Assembly: GCA_934273635.1 (NCBI GenBank)
Contig: CAKQSV010000008.1
Coordinates: forward strand, 30-64,029
Length of the DNA stretch: 64,000 nucleotides
Direction: 5' to 3'
Source of the DNA: an uncultured Alphaproteobacteria bacterium
Lineage (GTDB): Bacteria > Pseudomonadota > Alphaproteobacteria > RF32 > CAG-239
In this document: positions 4,659-18,901 of the stretch, in pieces
How positions within the stretch are numbered: position 1 is the stretch's first letter
Layout of the letters: every line of letters starts with the position of its first letter
Notes under the pieces: generated by a model
The model's database searches: none
The model's input: the letters and a program-made list of their open reading frames with translations, nothing else
Told to the model about the DNA's origin: nothing
Position numbers and translations under genes: made by a program

Positions 4659-5342
4659 ATGAAAATAGAAGAGCAGATATTCAAACGAATCCAAATTAAT
4701 TTTAGGGTATTGTCTGATTTTGGTTTTGAACAGTCAGATGGCAAGTGGATTTATGTTCAAGATTTTTTGGATGGGGCTTTTCGCGCCGTTATCGAAATTG
4801 ATGACAACGGGCTTATTACCGGTAATGTTTATGAGACGGACAGCAACGAAATATATATTCCTTTGCGCGTGGAGAGTATGGATAGCGGGTTTGTCGGCAA
4901 AGTGCGTGGTGAATATGTTCAAATTTTGGAAAATATAAAATCTCGTTGTTGTGTGGCAAATTATTTTATTTATCCGCAAGCCAATCGCTTGGCTCAGGCT
5001 ATTTATCAAAAATATGGAGACAAGCCGACGTTTCCGTGGGAGAAACTGTCAGGTTTCGGCGTTTTCAGAAATCCGGATAATCGTAAGTGGTATGCGGTTG
5101 TTATGAATCTTAACCGGCAAAAATTTGATAAAGGTCGTTCGGGCGAGTTTGAAGCGGTCAATATCAAACTAAATGAGGCCAAAATTTCTGAATTGCTCGG
5201 TCAAAAAGGTTTTTATCCGGCGTATCATATGAATAAAAAGAACTGGATAACTGTTTCTTTGGATGACACTTTGCAAGATGATGTGATATTTTCTTTAATT
5301 GAGGAAAGTCATCGATTGACCGAAAAAAGAAAAAATAATTAA
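4659..5342 (+). CDS. Two-domain protein: N-terminal domain of unknown function fused to a C-terminal MmcQ/YjbR-family domain
   Basis: C-terminal HMNKKNWITVSLDDTLQDDVIFSLIEESH matches the YjbR motif HLNKAHWSTVYLDGSLPDSQIYYLVDASY. Start placed at the ATG with GAGGAAAG 12 nt upstream; a TTG at 4641 is the alternative. Confidence 0.6.
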   Translation: MKIEEQIFKRIQINFRVLSDFGFEQSDGKWIYVQDFLDGAFRAVIEIDDNGLITGNVYETDSNEIYIPLRVESMDSGFVGKVRGEYVQILENIKSRCCVANYFIYPQANRLAQAIYQKYGDKPTFPWEKLSGFGVFRNPDNRKWYAVVMNLNRQKFDKGRSGEFEAVNIKLNEAKISELLGQKGFYPAYHMNKKNWITVSLDDTLQDDVIFSLIEESHRLTEKRKNN

Positions 5343-5421
5343 GTTGTTAAATGAAATTTGTTTTACAACAATTATATAGTGATAGCGATGACGATGTTTT
5401 AATTTGTTATGGAGGTATAAA

Positions 5422-5772
5422 ATGAGAAAAATGTTTTTGACTTTATTGGCGGTGTTTGCCGGTGTAAATGTTGCTAACGCTCAAGTAACAGGCGGTTTGG
5501 GGGCTGAGCCGACGGTGGTTATAACCGTGAAGGAGGCTTTGTCTCTTAATGATGACTCCAAGGTGGTTTTGCAAGGCAATATCGTTAACAATCTTGGCGA
5601 TGAAAAATATATTTTCAAAGACGCCACCGGAGAAGTTGTGGTTGAGATTGATGATGAAGATTGGATGGGACGGAAAGTCACGGCTGAAAATGTTGTTATC
5701 ATTAGTGGCGAAGTTGATAAAGATCACAATGAACCGACCAAAATTGATGTTGACACTTTTACCATAAAATAA
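5422..5772 (+). CDS. Periplasmic BOF (YgiW/YdeI, DUF388) OB-fold protein
   Basis: Signal peptide MRKMFLTLLAVFAGVNVANA; OB-fold pattern ...VVLQGNIV...DATGEVVVEIDDEDW...VIISGEVDKD...IDV. Strong RBS GGAGG 8 nt upstream. Confidence 0.65.
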   Translation: MRKMFLTLLAVFAGVNVANAQVTGGLGAEPTVVITVKEALSLNDDSKVVLQGNIVNNLGDEKYIFKDATGEVVVEIDDEDWMGRKVTAENVVIISGEVDKDHNEPTKIDVDTFTIK

Positions 5773-5814
5773 TCGTTAGCTTAAAAATGTTTTTATGGTG
5801 AGATAGAAAAAATA

Positions 5815-5842
5815 TTGACAAAAAAGAGTAAGTCAATATACT
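5815..5842 (+). promoter_or_regulatory. Sigma70-like promoter (TTGACA, 16-17 nt spacer, TATACT) for the 5891-6823 gene pair
   Basis: TTGACA at 5815-5820 and TATACT at 5837-5842. Confidence 0.45.
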
Positions 5843-5890
5843 TATTTTTCGTGTTAAATATTATTTTTTTAATTATTAAATATCAATGCA

Positions 5891-6331
5891 ATGAAAATTA
5901 AGCAATTATTGGAGCTTTATGCGTCAACATTTGAGGTAGACGCGGTTCTGAAACATTATGCGGTGGATTTTTTTGTTGACTCCGACGGTCCTGAATTATG
6001 GAGTGATTTCTCCAAAGATGTCAGAGCCAAACTGAAGGAGCAGCGCAAGATTATCATGCAAGAGTTGGTGCGTCAGTTTCCACTTTCGGCGATTGATTTG
6101 CGCGAGAACGGCGGCTTTGCCAAACCGCAGGATTTTTTTGCTGAGATGCAGAAGTATCCGGATTTGGTCAAGGCTTGCAACGGCGGGTTGAAATCTCTTA
6201 TCGGAGATTTTGAACGTGCCCTGCACACCAAGGTCAGAAGCCAATTCTTCGGGTATTCCGATGAGGCGGTTTATGGCTGTTTGGAGAGTATGGTTAGTTA
6301 TCTTAGTGAGTGGCAAAACAAAAATTTTTAA
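5891..6331 (+). CDS. Hypothetical protein (146 aa), no recognisable domain
   Basis: ORF with own promoter; stop at 6331 is 4 nt before the next ATG, suggesting translational coupling. Confidence 0.55.
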   Translation: MKIKQLLELYASTFEVDAVLKHYAVDFFVDSDGPELWSDFSKDVRAKLKEQRKIIMQELVRQFPLSAIDLRENGGFAKPQDFFAEMQKYPDLVKACNGGLKSLIGDFERALHTKVRSQFFGYSDEAVYGCLESMVSYLSEWQNKNF

Positions 6332-8420: not shown

Positions 8421-8447
8421 GGGGCGTCCGTTTGGATGCCCCTTTTG
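8421..8447 (+). terminator. Terminator hairpin ggggcgtcc-gttt-ggatgcccc followed by TTTT
   Basis: 9-bp stem with one mismatch. Confidence 0.6.
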
Positions 8448-8545
8448 CTATGCGCTTGTTATTATTGTGTGTTTTAGGCTTGAGATTAGATTTTATTCGT
8501 ATTATCTTAAGTGCGTTAATGGGCAATTTTAAGGATTTGAAAAAG

Positions 8546-9385
8546 ATGTATAATGTTAAGTATTGGTTGGCGGTCGCGGTGATGTGTTCAATGAGTTGCA
8601 ATGCCGGCGCGCAGAGTCTGGTTTCGTTGCAAAATGATATTGATACATTGCGTGAAGACGTGTTGTCTTTGCAACGCCAAAACTATCGTGATAATGCCGA
8701 GAATCCGCAAAAGTCATCTGATGTACAGGTGCGTTTGAGCCAAATTGAGGAACAAATGCGCACTCTGAACGGTAAAGTGGAAGAGTTGGAATATCGTATT
8801 AAGACATTTGATGACAAAGTTGCTCTGATAAACAAAGATATTGATGTCCGTTTCAGCATGTTGGAAGGAAAGGCCGTTGCCGGTAATGGCGCGGCTAATA
8901 CAACGGCTCCGAAGTTTGATGCACCGCAGGCGCAAAATGCTCCGAAGTCGGTAGTGGGCGACAGTGTTAAAGGTGATGTGTTGGAGCCTATCGGCAGCAA
9001 GGAAGTCGCCGAGATTTATCAAAACGGTTTGAACGCTCTAAAAGCGAACGATTATGTGACCTCGGAGCAGAATTTTAGTAAAATTGTCAGCCAGAATCCT
9101 AATGATAAACTAGCGGGCAATGCGCAGTATTGGTTGGGCGAAGTCTATTATGCCAAAAAAGATTATGCCAAAGCGGCGGTGGCGTTCGCTAAGGGGTATC
9201 AAAACTATAAGGATGGCGCTAAGGGGGCTGACAGTTTGTTTAAGCTCGGGATGTCGATGAAGTCGTTGAAGAAAAACACCGACGCTTGCGCGGCTTTTAG
9301 TAGCCTGAAAAAAGAGTTTCCGAAAGCAAATGCCGAACTGTTGAAAAAAGCCGCAACTGAGGCTAAGAACCTGAAATGCAAGTAG
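8546..9385 (+). CDS. cpoB: Cell-division coordinator CpoB/YbgF (tol-pal associated TPR protein)
   Basis: Signal peptide, coiled coil, then TPR-like YbgF domain (AQYWLGEVYYAKKDYAKAAVAF...). Position pal-cpoB-tilS. Start moved to ATG 8546 because the ORF-track start at 8432 overlaps the pal terminator. Confidence 0.8.
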   Translation: MYNVKYWLAVAVMCSMSCNAGAQSLVSLQNDIDTLREDVLSLQRQNYRDNAENPQKSSDVQVRLSQIEEQMRTLNGKVEELEYRIKTFDDKVALINKDIDVRFSMLEGKAVAGNGAANTTAPKFDAPQAQNAPKSVVGDSVKGDVLEPIGSKEVAEIYQNGLNALKANDYVTSEQNFSKIVSQNPNDKLAGNAQYWLGEVYYAKKDYAKAAVAFAKGYQNYKDGAKGADSLFKLGMSMKSLKKNTDACAAFSSLKKEFPKANAELLKKAATEAKNLKCK

Positions 9386-10512
9386 ACGCGGCGTTAGCGC
9401 AGTTTTGGAAAAAATATAATCTTAAGGATGATGTTATTGCCGCCGGTGTTTCCGGCGGCGCTGATTCTTTGGCGTTGGTGTTGGGGTTGCATAAGTTGCT
9501 ATCCGCGCAAAACAAAAGGGTGGTGACGCTGACGGTTGACCACGGTTTGCGTGCCGAATCGGCTCAAGAAGCGGCGTATGTGGCGCAGGTTATGGCGCGG
9601 TTCGGAATTGAACATCATATTTTGGTATGGCAAGGGGACAAGCCTCGGCGCGGTGTGGAAGATGCGGCGAGGAAAGCGCGTTATGCCTTGTTGGAAGAGT
9701 GGTGTGTGGCGCATGGCGTCAAGACTTTGGCGGTGGCTCATCATGCGCTTGATCAGGCTGAGACGTTTTTTTTGCGCTTGCAACGCGGCAGCGGGTTGTT
9801 TGGTTTGTGCGGGATGTTACCGGTCAGCCAATTAGGCAAAATGATGGTCGTTCGTCCGCTGTTGGCTTGTGAGCCCGAGGACTTGAAAGATTATTTGCGT
9901 GAACGGCAGATTAAGTGGGTGGAAGATCCGTCCAATCAGTGCGAAGATTTTATGCGTGTTAAAATTCGCAAGCGTTTGCCGTTGTGGCTGCGGGATTTGA
10001 ATTTGCCGTTGCCGCGTATTGGCAAAACAATGAGCGAGTTGGCGCGCGCGAGAGATTTTATACAGAGCAAAACCGACGGTTTTATTAAAAATCACGCGCG
10101 GATGTTGGAAGATTGGGTTGCCATGGTGCGTTTTGATGATTTGGCGGCGCAACACGACGAGTTGATTTTTCAGGTGATGGCGATGCTTATTCGCAAAGTC
10201 GGCGGCAACACTTATATTCCGCGGGCGGAAGATGTTGAGCGGTTGATTGTGCGGATTTTTCCGCAATATAAGGCTATCGGAGATGTGCGCTGTGAAGAGA
10301 AAAAGCCTTTTGCGGGGGCGACGCTCGGTGGTTGTGAGATTTTGTTGCAGAGCGGTAAAATCTGGGTGATTCCGGAGCTGAAAACAACGCGTAAAATGCC
10401 TCGGACGCTATGGGAGCGGTTCTGTGAGCTATACCCGAGTTATCAAAAACAAAAATTCCCCTACAAAGTTCGCGCGGTCTTGGTAAAAAACAAAATGAAG
10501 GTTGAGTTTTAG
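9376..10512 (+). CDS. tilS: tRNA(Ile)-lysidine synthetase
   Basis: PP-loop motif GVSGGADS; conserved position upstream of ftsH. Confidence 0.85.
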   Translation: MQVDAALAQFWKKYNLKDDVIAAGVSGGADSLALVLGLHKLLSAQNKRVVTLTVDHGLRAESAQEAAYVAQVMARFGIEHHILVWQGDKPRRGVEDAARKARYALLEEWCVAHGVKTLAVAHHALDQAETFFLRLQRGSGLFGLCGMLPVSQLGKMMVVRPLLACEPEDLKDYLRERQIKWVEDPSNQCEDFMRVKIRKRLPLWLRDLNLPLPRIGKTMSELARARDFIQSKTDGFIKNHARMLEDWVAMVRFDDLAAQHDELIFQVMAMLIRKVGGNTYIPRAEDVERLIVRIFPQYKAIGDVRCEEKKPFAGATLGGCEILLQSGKIWVIPELKTTRKMPRTLWERFCELYPSYQKQKFPYKVRAVLVKNKMKVEF

Positions 10513-10563
10513 TTTTGCCTGCCCTATATATTGATATAGGTATTTATGGGAAAAGGATAAAAG

Positions 10564-12429
10564 ATGAAATCTGGTAAAAATCTGGTGATTTGGCTGGCGG
10601 TGATTTTGGTGTTGTCGGCTTTGATGAGTGGTTTTGACAATGGGTTGAAGCACGCGGCGTCGGCTAATTTGGCGTTTTCTGACTTTATGAACGAGGTTGA
10701 GGACAAGCGTGTGTCCGAAGTGACAATCGCCGGCGCTCATGTGACGGGTATGCTGTCGGATGGACGGGCTTTTTATACCTATGCGCCGCAAGACCCTTCA
10801 ATGGTTGAGACCTTGCGTAAAAACGGCGTGGTGGTTAAGGCTGAGCCGGAGGATACTTCCGCCAATACGTTTTGGGGAATCGTCATATCGTGGTTTCCGA
10901 TGATTCTGTTGGTGGGCGTGTGGATTTATTTTATGCGTCAGGCCAACTCAGGCAACAACAAGGCGATGAGTTTCGGCAAATCGCGCGCCAGATTGATTGA
11001 AAACACCAAGAAGGTGACGTTTGCCGATGTGGCGGGCTGTGACGAATCGAAACAAGAGTTGGAAGAGATTATCGACTTTTTGAAAGATCCGACCAAGTTT
11101 CAGCGTTTGGGAGGGCGAATCCCGCGCGGCGTGCTGATGGTCGGCCCTCCGGGAACGGGTAAAACGCTGTTGGCGAAAGCTGTCGCCGGCGAAGCTAATG
11201 TGCCGTTTTTCTCTATTTCGGGGTCGGACTTTGTGGAGATGTTTGTGGGCGTGGGCGCGTCTCGTGTGCGCGATATGTTCCAACAAGCCAAAAAGAACGC
11301 GCCGTGCCTTTTGTTTATTGACGAGATTGACGCGGTCGGTCGTCATCGTGGCGCCGGTTTGGGCGGCGGCAATGACGAGCGTGAGCAAACGCTTAACCAG
11401 TTGTTGGTGGAGATGGACGGTTTTGACGACAACCAAAATGTGATTGTGATTGCGGCGACCAACCGTCCCGATGTGTTAGACCCCGCTTTGCTGCGTCCGG
11501 GGCGTTTTGACCGTCAGGTGACGGTGTCGAATCCGGATAAAAAAGGGCGTGAAGAGATTTTGAAAGTTCACGTTAAAAAAGTGCCGTTGTCAAAAGATGT
11601 TAATTTGTCGGTTATTGCGCGTGGAACGCCAGGGTTTTCGGGCGCGGATTTGGCCAATCTGGTCAATGAGGCGGCATTGTTGGCGGCGCGTAAAAACAAG
11701 CGCAAAGTGACCTCCAAAGACTTTGACGAGGCTAAAGATAAGGTCCTGATGGGAAATGAGCGCAAGTCTATGGCAATGGATGATAAAGAGAAAGAATTGA
11801 CGGCTTATCATGAGTCCGGACACGCGATTTGTTCGTTGTTTACGGAAGAATCAGACCCAATTCACAAAGCGACGATTATTCCGCGCGGACGGGCTTTGGG
11901 TATGGTGCAGCAGTTGCCTGAAAAAGACCAATACTCTTATTCTAAGACCAAAATGTTGTCGCGATTGGTGATTTGCATGGGTGGTCGTGTGGCCGAAGAG
12001 CTTAAATTTGGTGCCGACAAGGTTACTTCGGGGGCGTCTTCGGATATTGCCGCCGCCACGAATCTGGCGCGCTCCATGGTGACCGAGTGGGGCATGAGCG
12101 ACAAGCTCGGACCGGTGCTGTATGCCGAAAACTCGGGCGAGGTGTTCTTGGGCAAGTCGGTGACGCAAAACAAGAACATTAGCGAAGACACGGCTAAGTT
12201 AGTTGACGCAGAAATTAAACGTTTGGTAACCACGGGTTATGAGCGTGCCAAAAAACTCTTGGAGGAAAAAAAGACCGAGTGGGAGACTTTGGCTAAGGCG
12301 TTGATAGAATATGAAACATTGACAGGCGAGGAGATTAAGGACGTGATTGCCGGCAAGGCGATTGATAAATCTGACGAAGCGCCGGTCAGTGAGGAAAAAA
12401 GAACGCACGCTTCCGTGCCCGAGCTTTAA
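10564..12429 (+). CDS. ftsH: ATP-dependent zinc metalloprotease FtsH
   Basis: Walker A GPPGTGKT, second region of homology, and HEXXH (HESGHA) zinc site. Confidence 0.95.
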
Positions 12430-15322: not shown

Positions 15323-16684
15323 ATGCATGTGAGATTACCCAGTAAAATGGACAACCTCGTGCGGTATCTGAAACTTAAGATACTGCCGAAAAAGTTGTTC
15401 TTTAGAACAATGTTGCTGATTTTTGTGCCGCTGATTGTGGTGCAGGTGGTTTCGATTGTGGCCTTTTTTGACGGCACTTGGGGGCGTTTGGGCTCTCGTT
15501 TGGCCAACAACCTGACCTCGGATATGGCCATGGTGATGGATATGATTAATAAATCACCCGACCATTTGCAGGACATTAAACGCATTTCCAAAGACAATTT
15601 GGATATGGAAGTGACGGTCTATTTGAGCAAAGACAAGCACAAGGCTGTCAACAACGTGATTAAGAAAAACAATAATGAATTGGTGACCGGCTTTTTGGAG
15701 AAAAACCTCAAACGCAAGTTTCCGGCTGATTTGACGAGCGTTTATTGGAACCGTCACAGTTCGACGTTGACGGTGTTTATTGACACGCCGGAGCGGTTGT
15801 TTAAGTTTGTGACCTCGTCCAAAAATATTTTCTCAACCTCGATTTTCGGATTTGTGGCGTGGATGGTCGGCACCTCAATTTTGCTGTTTTTGGTGGCGGT
15901 GCTGTTTTTGCGGATTCAGGTGCGCTCGATTGCCGATTTGGCCAAGGCTGCCGAAGACTTCGGTAAAGGTATCGACAATAAAGACTTTAAGCCATACGGC
16001 TCGTCCGAGGTTAGAACCGCGGCGTTGGCGTTTATTAAAATGAAGGAGCGTATTCAGCGCCAAATTTCTGAAAGAACGCAAATGCTGGCGGGTGTGTCTC
16101 ATGACCTGCGCACGCCGTTGACCCGTATGAAGTTGCAGGCGACCATGCTCAAAGGTCAGGACAAGGAAGATATGTTGCAGGATATTTCCGAAATGGAAAA
16201 AATGCTGGAAGGTTATCTGTCTTTTGTGAGCGGTGAAGGCGGAGAAAAGTCGTCGTTTATTGATATGAACGAGCTGATTTTGAGCGTGCTGAACAAATAT
16301 CGCACCAAAGACGCGTTTATTCGCTACAAAACCAACGATCAGGTCAGCGCAATTCAGGGACGCGAACAAGCTCTTAAGCGCGCGATTACCAATGTGATTT
16401 CCAATGCTTTGAAATATGGTAAGACCGTGGCGGTGGATTTGGAAAGCAACGACCGCAAGTTGGAAATTACTATCGACGACGATGGTCCGGGAATCCCCGC
16501 AGATAAGAGGGAAGAAGTTTTTAAGGCGTTTTATCGTCTTGAAGAGTCTCGCAACAAAGAAACAGGAGGCATCGGTCTCGGTTTGGCTATCACTAAAGAT
16601 GTTATTACATCTCATGGTGGTAAGATTGAGCTGGCTGACAGTCCTTTAGGAGGTTTGAGAGTTCTCATTTCTATTCCCTTATAG
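15323..16684 (+). CDS. Sensor histidine kinase, EnvZ-like (2 TM, periplasmic domain, HisKA, HATPase)
   Basis: H-box MLAGVSHDLRTPLTRMKL is nearly identical to EnvZ; N-box NALKYG; G-box GLGLAI. No response regulator adjacent. Confidence 0.8.
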   Translation: MHVRLPSKMDNLVRYLKLKILPKKLFFRTMLLIFVPLIVVQVVSIVAFFDGTWGRLGSRLANNLTSDMAMVMDMINKSPDHLQDIKRISKDNLDMEVTVYLSKDKHKAVNNVIKKNNNELVTGFLEKNLKRKFPADLTSVYWNRHSSTLTVFIDTPERLFKFVTSSKNIFSTSIFGFVAWMVGTSILLFLVAVLFLRIQVRSIADLAKAAEDFGKGIDNKDFKPYGSSEVRTAALAFIKMKERIQRQISERTQMLAGVSHDLRTPLTRMKLQATMLKGQDKEDMLQDISEMEKMLEGYLSFVSGEGGEKSSFIDMNELILSVLNKYRTKDAFIRYKTNDQVSAIQGREQALKRAITNVISNALKYGKTVAVDLESNDRKLEITIDDDGPGIPADKREEVFKAFYRLEESRNKETGGIGLGLAITKDVITSHGGKIELADSPLGGLRVLISIPL

Positions 16685-16849
16685 CTCGCAAATTCGTAAA
16701 TTTATGGCTTGGATTAAATAGAATTTGCGCCATATTCTTAAAAGCGGACAGAGGTTGTTTTCTGTTCGCTTTTTTGTTAAAGTGATGTTAATACATCATA
16801 CATTATAATCGGTGTATTGTGTTTTTTGGTGCTCGTTGTGAGGGATAAT

Positions 16850-18901
16850 ATGTTTGGTTTTAAGAAAAATACAGAGAAAAAAATTGAACCCGAATTTACG
16901 GACAATTATGAGCAAAATGGCAATGAGCCAAAAGATTTGGCCGATATTTTGGGCGCGCAGGAAAATGACACGAACATTACCGCCGGCGTTGACGCTATTC
17001 TGGACGAAAGCGGCGATATTTCGGAAGAGCAGGCGGGGATTAATCACAATACGGTTGATTTTGGCGCTATTCATCCTGATGACGAGCCGTTGGATTTGGA
17101 CTCATACGATGAGCCGATTATGCAAAATTCTTATGAAGAACCGTTAGCGGCGGCATCCCTTGAGGCACCGGAAGTTGCGCCGTTTGACGAGCCTGCGGCA
17201 GAGCCCAAGCCGGTGTTTGAGGCGGAACCAGAGCCGGTTGTTGACGAGCCTGTGACAGAGCCTGAGCCGGTGTTTGAGGCAGAACCAGAGCCGGTTGTTG
17301 ACGAACCGGCGGCAGAACCTGAGCCGGTTGTTGAGGCACAGAATAATGCGGCGGCGGTCATGCCTGCCGAGCCCGAAAACGCGGTGCCGGATATTGATAA
17401 CATAACCGCGGCGCCTGCCGATGACGAGATTGAAGATATTTTGTCCGACGAGGTCGGCGATTTGAGCCTTGATGATATTCTGGGGGCGGAAGAAGACGCC
17501 TCTCTGGATGATATTTTACAAGAAGAAACAAATACGCCTGAAGACAATCCGATAGCGGATTTGCAAGATTTGGCACCGGCGAACCCTGTGCCGGAATCCG
17601 AGCCGGAGGCGGAGATTGACAGGCCTGAAGATGTGATTTTGGAAGAACCGGAGCCGGCATTTTCCGAAGAGCCGCAAGCGGAGGTTATGCCCGAGCCTGA
17701 ACAAGAAATTGCGGAGCCAGAAGATTTTGTGATGGCTGAACCCGAACCGGTGTTTGAGGAAGATAGTCCAACTGAACCGATTGAGGCGCAGAAGTTTGGG
17801 GTTGAGCCTGAGCTTGAGGCTAAGGATGTTGCACCTGAGCCGGTCGCAGTGCCGGAATTTGAGCCTGAGCCGGTTGTGGCGCCCGTGGTCGATGAGGTTG
17901 TGACGGAGACAGCAGAAGATGTTGTGGCACCGGAAGTGCCGGAAAGCGGTTTTATTCCCGCGGCGCCGGTGACGTTTGTGAACGTGGCTGATGAGACCTC
18001 GGCAGAGGCTAAGCAGGTTGAGCCTAAGGCTGATTTGTGGACGGTTGAGGATATGGGTATCCTGTCCGCCTCGCCAAAGGTGATTAATGACAATAGTGGC
18101 TGTGTTACTTGGTGCGGTGATAAATATCAGAGCGATTTGAAAATTGCGGTTGATAGTTTTCAGGCGCTTAAAAATTGGTCTTTGATGATTATTAACGAAT
18201 TTTCGGTGCCTCTGGTTGATGTTGGCTCGGAGGTTGTGATTGAAAAAGCAGACAATGTGGTGCGTTATGCCTCTTTGGTGCGCAACGGTGTGGAAAAATT
18301 GCAGATTTTTAATCAGCGTTCGTATAAATTTGTGACGCCGCAAAATGAATTTTTTACGGTGCAGGGTAATGTTATTTGCGGGCGGATTGATAATTCTTTT
18401 GCCTTGAATATTCGAGATTACGTTACCGTGGCTTTGGAAGACAAGGTCAACAAATATATTCGTTTTGAACGTCCGATGTCCGGCTTTATTAACGGCGCCA
18501 ACGGCGTCAGAGTGTTTTTTGCCAATGCCAAAGGTGTGGCGCTGACAGTGGCCGGTGTTATTCCGGAGCCCGAAGTTTTTGAGTATCAGCCGCCGCTTAA
18601 AGAGTTTGACACCAAGGCTTGTTATGTGTTTGACGAGAGCAGCGAAGACCAAGAATTTACGGCGGATAATCGCAAAAAGATTTTGGTGGTGAACGTTGGG
18701 GCGTCATTATATGGTTGGAACGTTCATTTTGACAATGAGGCTTATATGAGTTTGCGTGACGCTCTTGAATATCAATCTCGTTACAAGCAATTACCCTCAT
18801 CCAACGGCGAGTTGCTTCACGGTGCTCGCAAGCTTAAGTTCTATGGCATAGAGCAGTTAAAAACGAGGGTGCGGGTTGTGTATTACTCCTACGGCTCTTA
18901 A
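16850..18901 (+). CDS. Large acidic Pro/Glu/Val-repeat protein with a ~300-aa C-terminal globular domain of unknown function
   Basis: Repeats EPEPVVDEPAAEPEPVFEAE...; no signal peptide; RBS GAGGGA before ATG 16850. Confidence 0.6.
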   Translation: MFGFKKNTEKKIEPEFTDNYEQNGNEPKDLADILGAQENDTNITAGVDAILDESGDISEEQAGINHNTVDFGAIHPDDEPLDLDSYDEPIMQNSYEEPLAAASLEAPEVAPFDEPAAEPKPVFEAEPEPVVDEPVTEPEPVFEAEPEPVVDEPAAEPEPVVEAQNNAAAVMPAEPENAVPDIDNITAAPADDEIEDILSDEVGDLSLDDILGAEEDASLDDILQEETNTPEDNPIADLQDLAPANPVPESEPEAEIDRPEDVILEEPEPAFSEEPQAEVMPEPEQEIAEPEDFVMAEPEPVFEEDSPTEPIEAQKFGVEPELEAKDVAPEPVAVPEFEPEPVVAPVVDEVVTETAEDVVAPEVPESGFIPAAPVTFVNVADETSAEAKQVEPKADLWTVEDMGILSASPKVINDNSGCVTWCGDKYQSDLKIAVDSFQALKNWSLMIINEFSVPLVDVGSEVVIEKADNVVRYASLVRNGVEKLQIFNQRSYKFVTPQNEFFTVQGNVICGRIDNSFALNIRDYVTVALEDKVNKYIRFERPMSGFINGANGVRVFFANAKGVALTVAGVIPEPEVFEYQPPLKEFDTKACYVFDESSEDQEFTADNRKKILVVNVGASLYGWNVHFDNEAYMSLRDALEYQSRYKQLPSSNGELLHGARKLKFYGIEQLKTRVRVVYYSYGS

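Follow-up and report, generated by a model that had tools for sequence, protein, structure and literature searches.

Accessory proteins are known for several two-component systems, including LpqB with MtrAB, PhoU with PhoR, CpxP with CpxA, MzrA with EnvZ, and WalH/WalI with WalK. In Caulobacter, scaffolds with disordered regions position histidine kinases, SpmX acting for DivJ and PodJ for PleC. Here, we analyzed a gene whose product we call protein X, located in a 64,000-nucleotide (nt) stretch of DNA (hereafter the window; contig CAKQSV010000008.1 of assembly GCA_934273635.1, positions 30 to 64,029, forward strand) from an uncultured Alphaproteobacteria bacterium of the CAG-239 lineage. Protein X is built of three parts, namely an N-terminal module, an acidic disordered linker, and a beta-rich C-terminal region with no known relative. 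Its gene is under purifying selection and lies directly behind an EnvZ/CenK-like sensor histidine kinase gene in every locus where the upstream sequence is available. We tentatively propose, at somewhat less than an even chance, that protein X serves as an accessory or scaffold component of this adjoining two-component system.

As with the known accessories, the gene of protein X comes right after those of a regulator and a kinase in a tight operon, an arrangement seen in distant clades, and this adjacency holds across wide divergence. Protein X shares no domain with LpqB, PhoU, CpxP, MzrA, or WalH/WalI. Unlike these proteins, which apart from PhoU are periplasmic, membrane-bound, or lipoproteins, it has neither a signal peptide nor a membrane segment. 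PhoU, the sole cytoplasmic accessory among them, is a compact, folded, helical protein, whereas protein X is mostly disordered and polyanionic. We know of no precedent for a cytoplasmic disordered accessory in two-component systems. Like SpmX and PodJ, which recruit or activate a specific kinase, protein X is a large protein with a long disordered region, Pro-rich or acidic, whose length varies. SpmX and PodJ, however, possess a muramidase domain, coiled coils, and membrane segments, none of which is present in protein X, and their genes do not adjoin a kinase gene.

The initial annotation of the window had likened protein X to PopZ. The likeness held for the overall layout, as in both proteins an acidic Pro-rich linker joins a short module at the N-terminus to a folded domain at the C-terminus. 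It also held for linker composition. The PopZ linker has a net charge per residue of −0.28, an acidic fraction of 0.29, and a proline fraction of 0.23–0.29 (PMC9512792); the corresponding values in protein X were −0.27 to −0.29, 0.31, and 0.16, so that charge and acidic fraction match, proline is lower, and the linker again qualifies as acidic, Pro-rich, and disordered. The likeness did not extend to homology. Of the 177 amino acids (aa) of PopZ, 78 form the linker, and its oligomerization domain is helical, whereas protein X has 683 aa and a linker 4–5 times longer. In PopZ, clients bind to an N-terminal helix (residues 1–23) and oligomerization resides in C-terminal helices 2–4, the PopZ/DUF2497-type region (PMC9512792). 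No such helical domain was found in protein X, in which the ~290-aa C-terminal region had no Pfam match at E ≤ 0.1 and was modeled as nearly all beta. The N-terminal module also appears to differ in sequence from the PopZ N-terminus. The PopZ gene, unlike that of protein X, is not known to be tied to a histidine kinase gene.

Anatomy and conservation of protein X

The coding sequence of protein X (Table 1) specifies 683 residues plus a stop codon, which corrects the 684 aa first reported. A GAGG Shine-Dalgarno sequence is located 6 nt 5' of the ATG. A longer, TTG-initiated frame from 16817 was judged less likely because the orthologues open with the same MFGFKK. The closest relative (P0005, at locus L018) is 84% identical overall and 20 aa shorter. 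In a Nei-Gojobori comparison with this relative (dS ~0.47), the ratio of nonsynonymous to synonymous substitution rates (dN/dS) was 0.15 overall, 0.16 in the N-terminal module, 0.21 in the linker, and 0.09 in the C-terminal region. These values indicate that the protein X gene is real, conserved, and under purifying selection, and that even the linker is still constrained as coding sequence.

The N-terminal module, in which the only basic cluster of the acidic part sits, starts with MFGFKKNTEKK and follows the pattern MFGFKK...LADILGA.ENDTNITAGVDAILDE. In an alignment of 10 orthologue N-termini, residues L30, I33, L34, V47, D48, A49, L51, and D52 were at least 90% conserved. When 12 orthologues were compared with the window protein in 20-residue blocks, mean identity was 0.50–0.69 over residues 1–60, mostly 0.15–0.34 in the linker, rising locally to 0.44 at residues 201–220, and 0.37–0.81 in the C-terminal region. 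The N-terminal module was not found on other architectures by word-indexed homology search, a method that is insensitive for this family. In agreement with the initial annotation, no signal peptide was detected, nor was a transmembrane segment: protein X has no hydrophobic segment suited to either role, and the highest 19-residue Kyte-Doolittle mean, 1.51, falls within a beta-strand. We infer that protein X is cytoplasmic.

The sequence and length of the linker evolve fast among orthologues. The net charge of residues 1–396 is −105, or 0.268 per residue in magnitude, and their isoelectric point is 4.05; residues 101–390 consist of 21.7% Glu, 9% Asp, 16.2% Pro, and 12.1% Val. By the charge-hydropathy rule, residues 1–396 lie on the disordered side and residues 397–683 on the folded side; the acidic, Pro-rich, and disordered character first ascribed to the N-terminal part thus holds over ~396 aa. 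The description of this part as composed of repeats was overstated. Just one array, of 2.7 copies, is a true tandem repeat, and it is also direct-repeat family D2. Beyond it, EPEP(V/A)F motifs occur in scattered, degenerate form, and the remainder is non-periodic, low-complexity compositional bias. The accompanying suggestion that the gene varies in length through its repeats was upheld. In the alignment with the closest relative, 15 of the 24 gap columns fall in the tandem-repeat region, marking it as the place where close relatives differ in length, and the full-length proteins of the window clade span 503–811 aa.

Short hydrophobic-acidic motifs punctuate this drifting sequence. The hxDIL motif occurs four times in the window protein, compared with 0.26 expected from shuffles. 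Among the 12 orthologues, nine have two to four copies each and the other three have one, against expectations of 0.13–0.43. The mid-linker LDDILG copy recurs in most window-clade orthologues, at conserved places.

The globular region begins with WTVEDMG at residue 397 (nt 18038) and extends for 287 aa to the C-terminus. An AlphaFold2 model of the C-terminal 293 aa, built on a 58-sequence alignment, had a mean predicted local distance difference test score (pLDDT) of 92 and a predicted template modeling score (pTM) of 0.67, and consisted almost wholly of beta structure, the two helices being short (5 and 11 residues). The model comprises a beta-sandwich (strands E7–E177 in the numbering of model mba3bca816e25), which is limited to the longer branch of the family and absent from the short family, and the family-defining core. 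The core is predicted to fold as five short strands, one helix, and then three strands. Its sequence follows the pattern ...VNVG.S.YGWNV.FDN...MSL.D..EYQ....LP...G....G...L.F......YYSYG. Across the 43 diverse members of alignment A3, the residues G, W, F, P, G, F, and Y were invariant and Y, N, M, D, and Q nearly so; the window protein has every invariant position of alignments A2 and A3. In these two family alignments, the core showed no His, Cys, Ser, or Lys conserved in the manner of a catalytic residue. This suggests that the core is a binding or assembly module, which may bind or self-assemble rather than catalyze.

The initial annotation could not assign the C-terminal ~300 aa, and our searches gave the same outcome. 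Pfam (E ≤ 0.1), NCBIfam, PADLOC, and PHROGs returned no match for protein X, its C-terminal domain, or other family members. A single-sequence search of PDB sequences yielded nothing but hits to C2c1 attributable to chance (E 0.04), and a search with a 43-sequence profile yielded none. Structure prediction followed by Foldseek, as the initial annotation had advised, gave the confident model described above and no relative among solved structures: no PDB fold matched at E ≤ 0.001, and TM-scores were ≤0.17. We also considered the beta-sandwich as a diverged copy of the core (hhalign E 0.007 in a single comparison, probability ~6%); this is a weak hint that we do not claim. On the predicted structure, the C-terminal domain could merit a domain entry of its own and possibly represents a new fold. 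Neither of the two outcomes against which the initial annotation had cautioned, a match to a known family or an open reading frame (ORF) that is merely a repeat artefact, was found, given the negative searches and the dN/dS values of 0.09–0.21.

Kinase linkage and distribution of the family

The kinase gene upstream of protein X encodes a protein whose best NCBIfam match is EnvZ, over the full length, at 231 bits, which is below the 415-bit equivalog cutoff. Its CenK-like label is putative and rests on this sub-cutoff, full-length EnvZ/OmpR-like match. No OmpR-type response regulator was detectable by tblastn in the 64-kb window, in agreement with the earlier description of an EnvZ-like orphan kinase preceding the gene. 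We fetched 42 related loci, 32 of which include sequence upstream of protein X. Counting the window, 33 of 33 loci have the kinase gene immediately before that of protein X, in the same orientation, and the kinases of the 32 fetched loci were 46–99% identical. Many of the 32 loci are near-duplicates and represent roughly 15 distinct lineages.

The distance between the two genes is 165 nt in the window. In clades that possess only the core, the gene order is uvrC-pgsA-regulator-kinase-X and just 4–30 nt separate the kinase from protein X, indicating one operon. The kinase-X pair was kept in locus L012, despite an inverted downstream rplU block, and in the window clade, where hslO-recX replaces the regulator and uvrC-pgsA. 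The kinase is the sole invariant partner of the protein X family and not an incidental neighbor, a point that the initial annotation had missed.

An exhaustive HMMER search with a profile of the C-terminal domain detected 235 representative clusters (defined at 50% identity) at E ≤ 0.001, and 204 at E ≤ 1e-10. Word-indexed homology searches, in comparison, returned only 4, 8, and 2 matches. One cluster alone comprised 206 member sequences, seen on dozens of contigs from metagenomes, human-gut assemblies among them. In our local set, near-duplicates included, 64 sequences covered the whole ~280-aa C-terminal region, and more than 80 proteins of 110–580 aa (representatives and near-identical members of one cluster) matched over the last ~95 aa only. 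These ~95 aa, ending in a YFSYG-like sequence, are the feature common to all members. The region ahead of the core is acidic throughout the family (20–35% Asp + Glu, 2–8% Lys + Arg) and very variable in length, and across 150 representatives its high negative charge was kept while the sequence drifted freely. All named sources are alphaproteobacterial metagenome-assembled genomes (MAGs), recovered from the rumen of roe deer and cattle, from horse faeces, and from the gut of mouse or human. The protein X family is previously undescribed and restricted to Alphaproteobacteria of gut, rumen, and faeces.

Short N-terminal motifs are conserved within clades. The window clade has LADILG...GVDAILDE, and other clades carry (D/E)YEYEYIELEEG, DINLDEFNFDDL, DFPSFL(R/K), or PKPPPF. 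The motif [DE]-x-F-P-S-F-L-[RK] occurs near the N-terminus of 11 representatives, mostly at residues 16–20; carriers of D-x-F-P-S-F-L-(R/K) include P0062, P0067, P0068, P0097, P0121, P0126, and P0140. This motif is found neither in the window protein nor in its clade.

Some assemblies are disturbed at the acidic region. The orthologue at L004, in a roe-deer rumen MAG (~5300–5900), contains an uninterrupted (Glu-Pro)n run of roughly 90 copies as counted by eye. Two other assemblies break inside the region, L001 with unknown bases and L016 with an uncalled stretch and split gene calls. Genes of this kind therefore appear prone to mis-assembly and splitting in metagenomes, so that the family is larger than database counts suggest.

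The kinase-X spacer and neighboring genes

The spacer between the kinase and protein X contains three elements (Table 1). The first, a near-invariant hairpin, lies just 3' of the kinase stop codon and 5' of the terminator. It occurs once in the window (0 expected by chance) and at the same place in L001, L004, L005, L006, and L018, and it is nearly invariant though the adjoining X proteins are only ~50% identical. Rfam gave no match near any gathering score in the spacer, and RNAalifold detected no covariation in the hairpin, because the element hardly varies. It could be a 3'-untranslated-region RNA element or a protein-binding site. The second element is an intrinsic terminator of the kinase gene, whose stem sequence varies among orthologues with the hairpin and T-run kept in each. 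Folded together, the two hairpins reached −30.8 kcal/mol (z = −5.5).

The third element is a promoter-like conserved block with a −35-like GTGATG at 16782–16787 (TTGATA/TTGATT in L001/L005), a 16-nt spacer, and a −10 TATAAT at 16804–16809. A simple promoter scan did not call this block in the window. From its conservation and consensus match, protein X probably has its own promoter in the window clade. No CenR-type TGA-N8-TGA box conserved upstream of protein X was seen when the spacer was inspected by eye, and a palindrome of the window spacer, TGATGT-N4-ACATCA, was not kept in orthologues.

Table 1. Features of the kinase-protein X locus, in window coordinates
Feature	Coordinates	Strand	Extent	Basis or remark
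EnvZ/CenK-like sensor histidine kinase	15323..16684	+	453 aa	Pfam: two transmembrane segments, HAMP, HisKA, HATPase
Near-invariant hairpin/inverted repeat	16687..16729	+	43 nt	CGCAAATTC-N25-GAATTTGCG; alignment A4
Intrinsic terminator of kinase gene	16740..16777	+	15-bp stem + T-run	RNA fold
Promoter-like conserved block	16774..16812	+		alignment A4 conservation and consensus match
Protein X coding sequence	16850..18901	+	2052 nt; 683 aa + stop	ORF list and translation
N-terminal module	16850..17029	+	aa 1-60	alignment of 10 orthologue N-termini
Motif LADILGAQE	16937-16963	+		inside N-terminal module
Motif GVDAILDE	16985-17008	+		inside N-terminal module
Acidic Pro/Glu/Val/Ala-rich disordered linker	17030..18037	+	aa 61-396 (~335 aa)	composition, charge-hydropathy
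Only true tandem repeat	17184..17338	+	57-nt (19-aa) unit, 2.7 copies, 87% matches	Tandem Repeats Finder
Mid-linker motif cluster IEDIL, LDDILGAEE, LDDILQEE	17429..17527	+	aa 194-226	echoes N-terminal LADILG
Beta-sandwich, first C-terminal subdomain	18038..18550	+	aa 397-567	AlphaFold2 model mba3bca816e25
Family-defining core domain	18578..18898	+	aa 577-683	alignment A3; always at extreme C-terminus

The gene order in the window is cpoB-like, tilS, ftsH, apaG, an unassigned ORF, hslO, recX, kinase, and protein X, followed by a leucine-rich repeat (LRR) protein gene, a lipoprotein gene on the opposite strand, a nuclease gene, rplU, and, downstream, obg; in related loci, rpmA lies between rplU and obg. 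The cpoB/ybgF-like gene (TolA-binding trimerization domain plus tetratricopeptide repeats), tilS, and ftsH occupy 8432–12429 (+), 3–8 kb upstream of the kinase; genes of these kinds form the tail of the alphaproteobacterial tol-pal cluster. On the minus strand, a 320-aa Ser/Gly/Thr-rich ORF at 17131–18093 is not a gene but a shadow cast by the GAR/CCN-rich codons.

The LRR protein (19170–20204, +, 344 aa) consists of ~23-aa leucine-rich repeats (LTSLEGAPREVGG.F.C..N), has a weak internalin-J match (E 1.3e-5), and is encoded between protein X and the lipoprotein gene. None of the 42 related loci encodes it, and the surrounding DNA drops to 36–37% GC, suggesting that the gene was probably acquired horizontally. 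The lipoprotein-like protein (20434–21291, −, 284–285 aa) has a Cys at residue 21 in a lipobox-like context (...AAGC). It matched no significant Pfam or NCBIfam family, with one sub-threshold DUF5625 match (E 0.043), and it is 55–75% identical in all related loci, always adjoining the nuclease-rplU-rpmA-obg block. Its gene travels with the rplU block and not with protein X. The lipoprotein-like protein is another uncharacterized family specific to the lineage of protein X.

Candidate roles of protein X

The strict kinase linkage and the conserved core without catalytic-type residues point to a binding protein with a functional link to the kinase pathway, and on these grounds we favor, tentatively, a role as an accessory or scaffold of the adjoining two-component system. 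In such a role, the beta-rich C-terminal region, chiefly its ~95-aa aromatic-rich core, would dock protein X onto the kinase, the regulator, or itself. The acidic Pro-rich disordered region would act as an extended, salt-sensitive spacer in which bulk charge, not sequence, is conserved. The short hydrophobic-acidic motifs LADILG, GVDAILDE, and LDDILG may then recruit one or more clients multivalently. The agreement in net charge and acidic fraction with the PopZ linker, which tunes the behavior of a scaffold, also speaks for such a role.

Several observations weigh against this role. Protein X evolves far faster than the kinase (dN/dS 0.09–0.21 versus 0.017), which is unusual for an obligate partner. 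Where kinases are 66–90% identical (52–53% in L010/L013, for which alignment is limited to the core), the C-terminal domains are 27–59% identical. Within a single lineage, conserved gene order can in part be a legacy of common descent rather than a sign of function, and in the window clade the terminator and separate promoter-like block mean that co-transcription with the kinase is not required. The N-terminal motif changes from clade to clade (LADILG, EYEYIEL, DEFNFDDL, FPSFLR), so the client may differ by clade. Protein X is, moreover, known from genes alone, and its source organisms are uncultured.

A broader version of the accessory role, which we consider unlikely, is that protein X represents a new class of signaling scaffold, polyanionic and with a new fold, acting as the third component of an EnvZ/CenK-type system in host-associated Alphaproteobacteria. 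Such a scaffold would organize the kinase, the regulator, or division proteins through its multivalent motifs, possibly in a condensate, and in some lineages an FtsZ-tail mimic would couple envelope sensing to division.

Alternatively, protein X could be a PopZ-like hub independent of the kinase. In that case, the C-terminal domain would self-assemble, the linker would keep the assembly fluid, and the motifs would bind clients at the pole or another site, with kinase adjacency being inherited gene order. The shared three-part layout, the matching linker charge and acidic fraction, the multivalent motifs, and the polyanionic character retained family-wide despite sequence drift all fit a hub of this kind. 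It is nevertheless rather improbable in our judgment: the proteins are not homologous, the C-terminal region of ~290 aa is nearly all beta and without a Pfam match, the linker is 4–5 times the 78 aa of PopZ, and the kinase adjacency in 33 of 33 loci, kept through two rearrangements, would be left unexplained.

Protein X might instead tie envelope signaling to cell division, with FPSFL(R/K) mimicking the FtsZ tail to compete for or recruit FtsZ-binding proteins, and the window protein doing so through a diverged motif. The E. coli FtsZ C-terminal conserved peptide contains DIPAFLR (PMC4117426), to which the motif of the 11 representatives bears a likeness, and CenKR-type systems regulate envelope, division, and Tol-Pal genes in Rhodobacter (PMC9275681). 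The cpoB-tilS-ftsH cluster 3–8 kb upstream in the window also fits. The likeness covers only 5–7 residues, however, and the window protein and its clade are without the motif; the CenK identity of the upstream kinase is itself only putative. The FtsZ peptide is C-terminal, whereas FPSFL[RK] is N-terminal in an acidic disordered context. We regard this link to division as distinctly improbable.

We consider it a similarly long shot that the polyanionic region is itself the active part, either as a DNA mimic that sequesters the DNA-binding domain of an OmpR-type regulator or as an ionic-strength or cation sensor that informs the kinase of conditions in the cytoplasm. The hxD(I/L)L motifs could then contact receiver domains as CheZ and FliM do on CheY. 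The CheZ peptide reads ...VDDLLDSLGF. LDDILG, VDAILDE, and LDDLLDNE resemble the CheY-binding fragments DDLLDSLGF of CheZ and EIDALL of FliM, both of which are confirmed in the literature. The negative charge kept through free drift across 150 representatives and the tight regulator-kinase-X operon in distant clades are in keeping with such activity. This proposal is purely an analogy, though, involving short motifs of low information content, and it leaves the large conserved C-terminal domain without a role. We treat both the FPSFL(R/K)-FtsZ and the LDDILG/VDAILDE-CheZ/FliM resemblances as leads only.

It is highly improbable that protein X is secreted or surface-exposed without an N-terminal signal, in the manner of acidic type I substrates with a C-terminal signal, and acts on the host or environment; the GGxGxD nonapeptide repeats and linked transporter genes of RTX/type I substrates were not found. 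Two other classes were rejected. A TonB/TolA-type protein would have an N-terminal anchor and a Pfam TonB/TolA domain, and protein X has neither (its top hydropathy window, noted above, falls in the beta domain). For a HubP/FimV-type protein, there was no Pfam or NCBIfam match for LysM or the FimV motif and no membrane segment. Finally, the biased codon content and the long shadow ORF on the opposite strand might suggest a non-coding artefact of repetitive, composition-biased DNA, but this has a negligible chance of being correct and is already refuted by the dN/dS values, the hundreds of homologues whose N- and C-terminal modules are conserved, the Shine-Dalgarno sequence, and the confident C-terminal model.

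The protein X family, with at least 235 clusters, is missing from Pfam, NCBIfam, and PDB, and its strict kinase linkage provides a concrete hypothesis for what would otherwise be a 'hypothetical' protein. The contrast with PopZ is useful for asking in what way bacterial scaffolds are tuned by the length and charge of their disordered regions. The family is best viewed as having a PopZ-like layout with an unrelated, structurally unmatched C-terminal domain, and as adding to a two-component system a third component of a new kind. Our findings suggest that the two-component systems of poorly known, uncultured gut and rumen Alphaproteobacteria may include a cytoplasmic disordered accessory.

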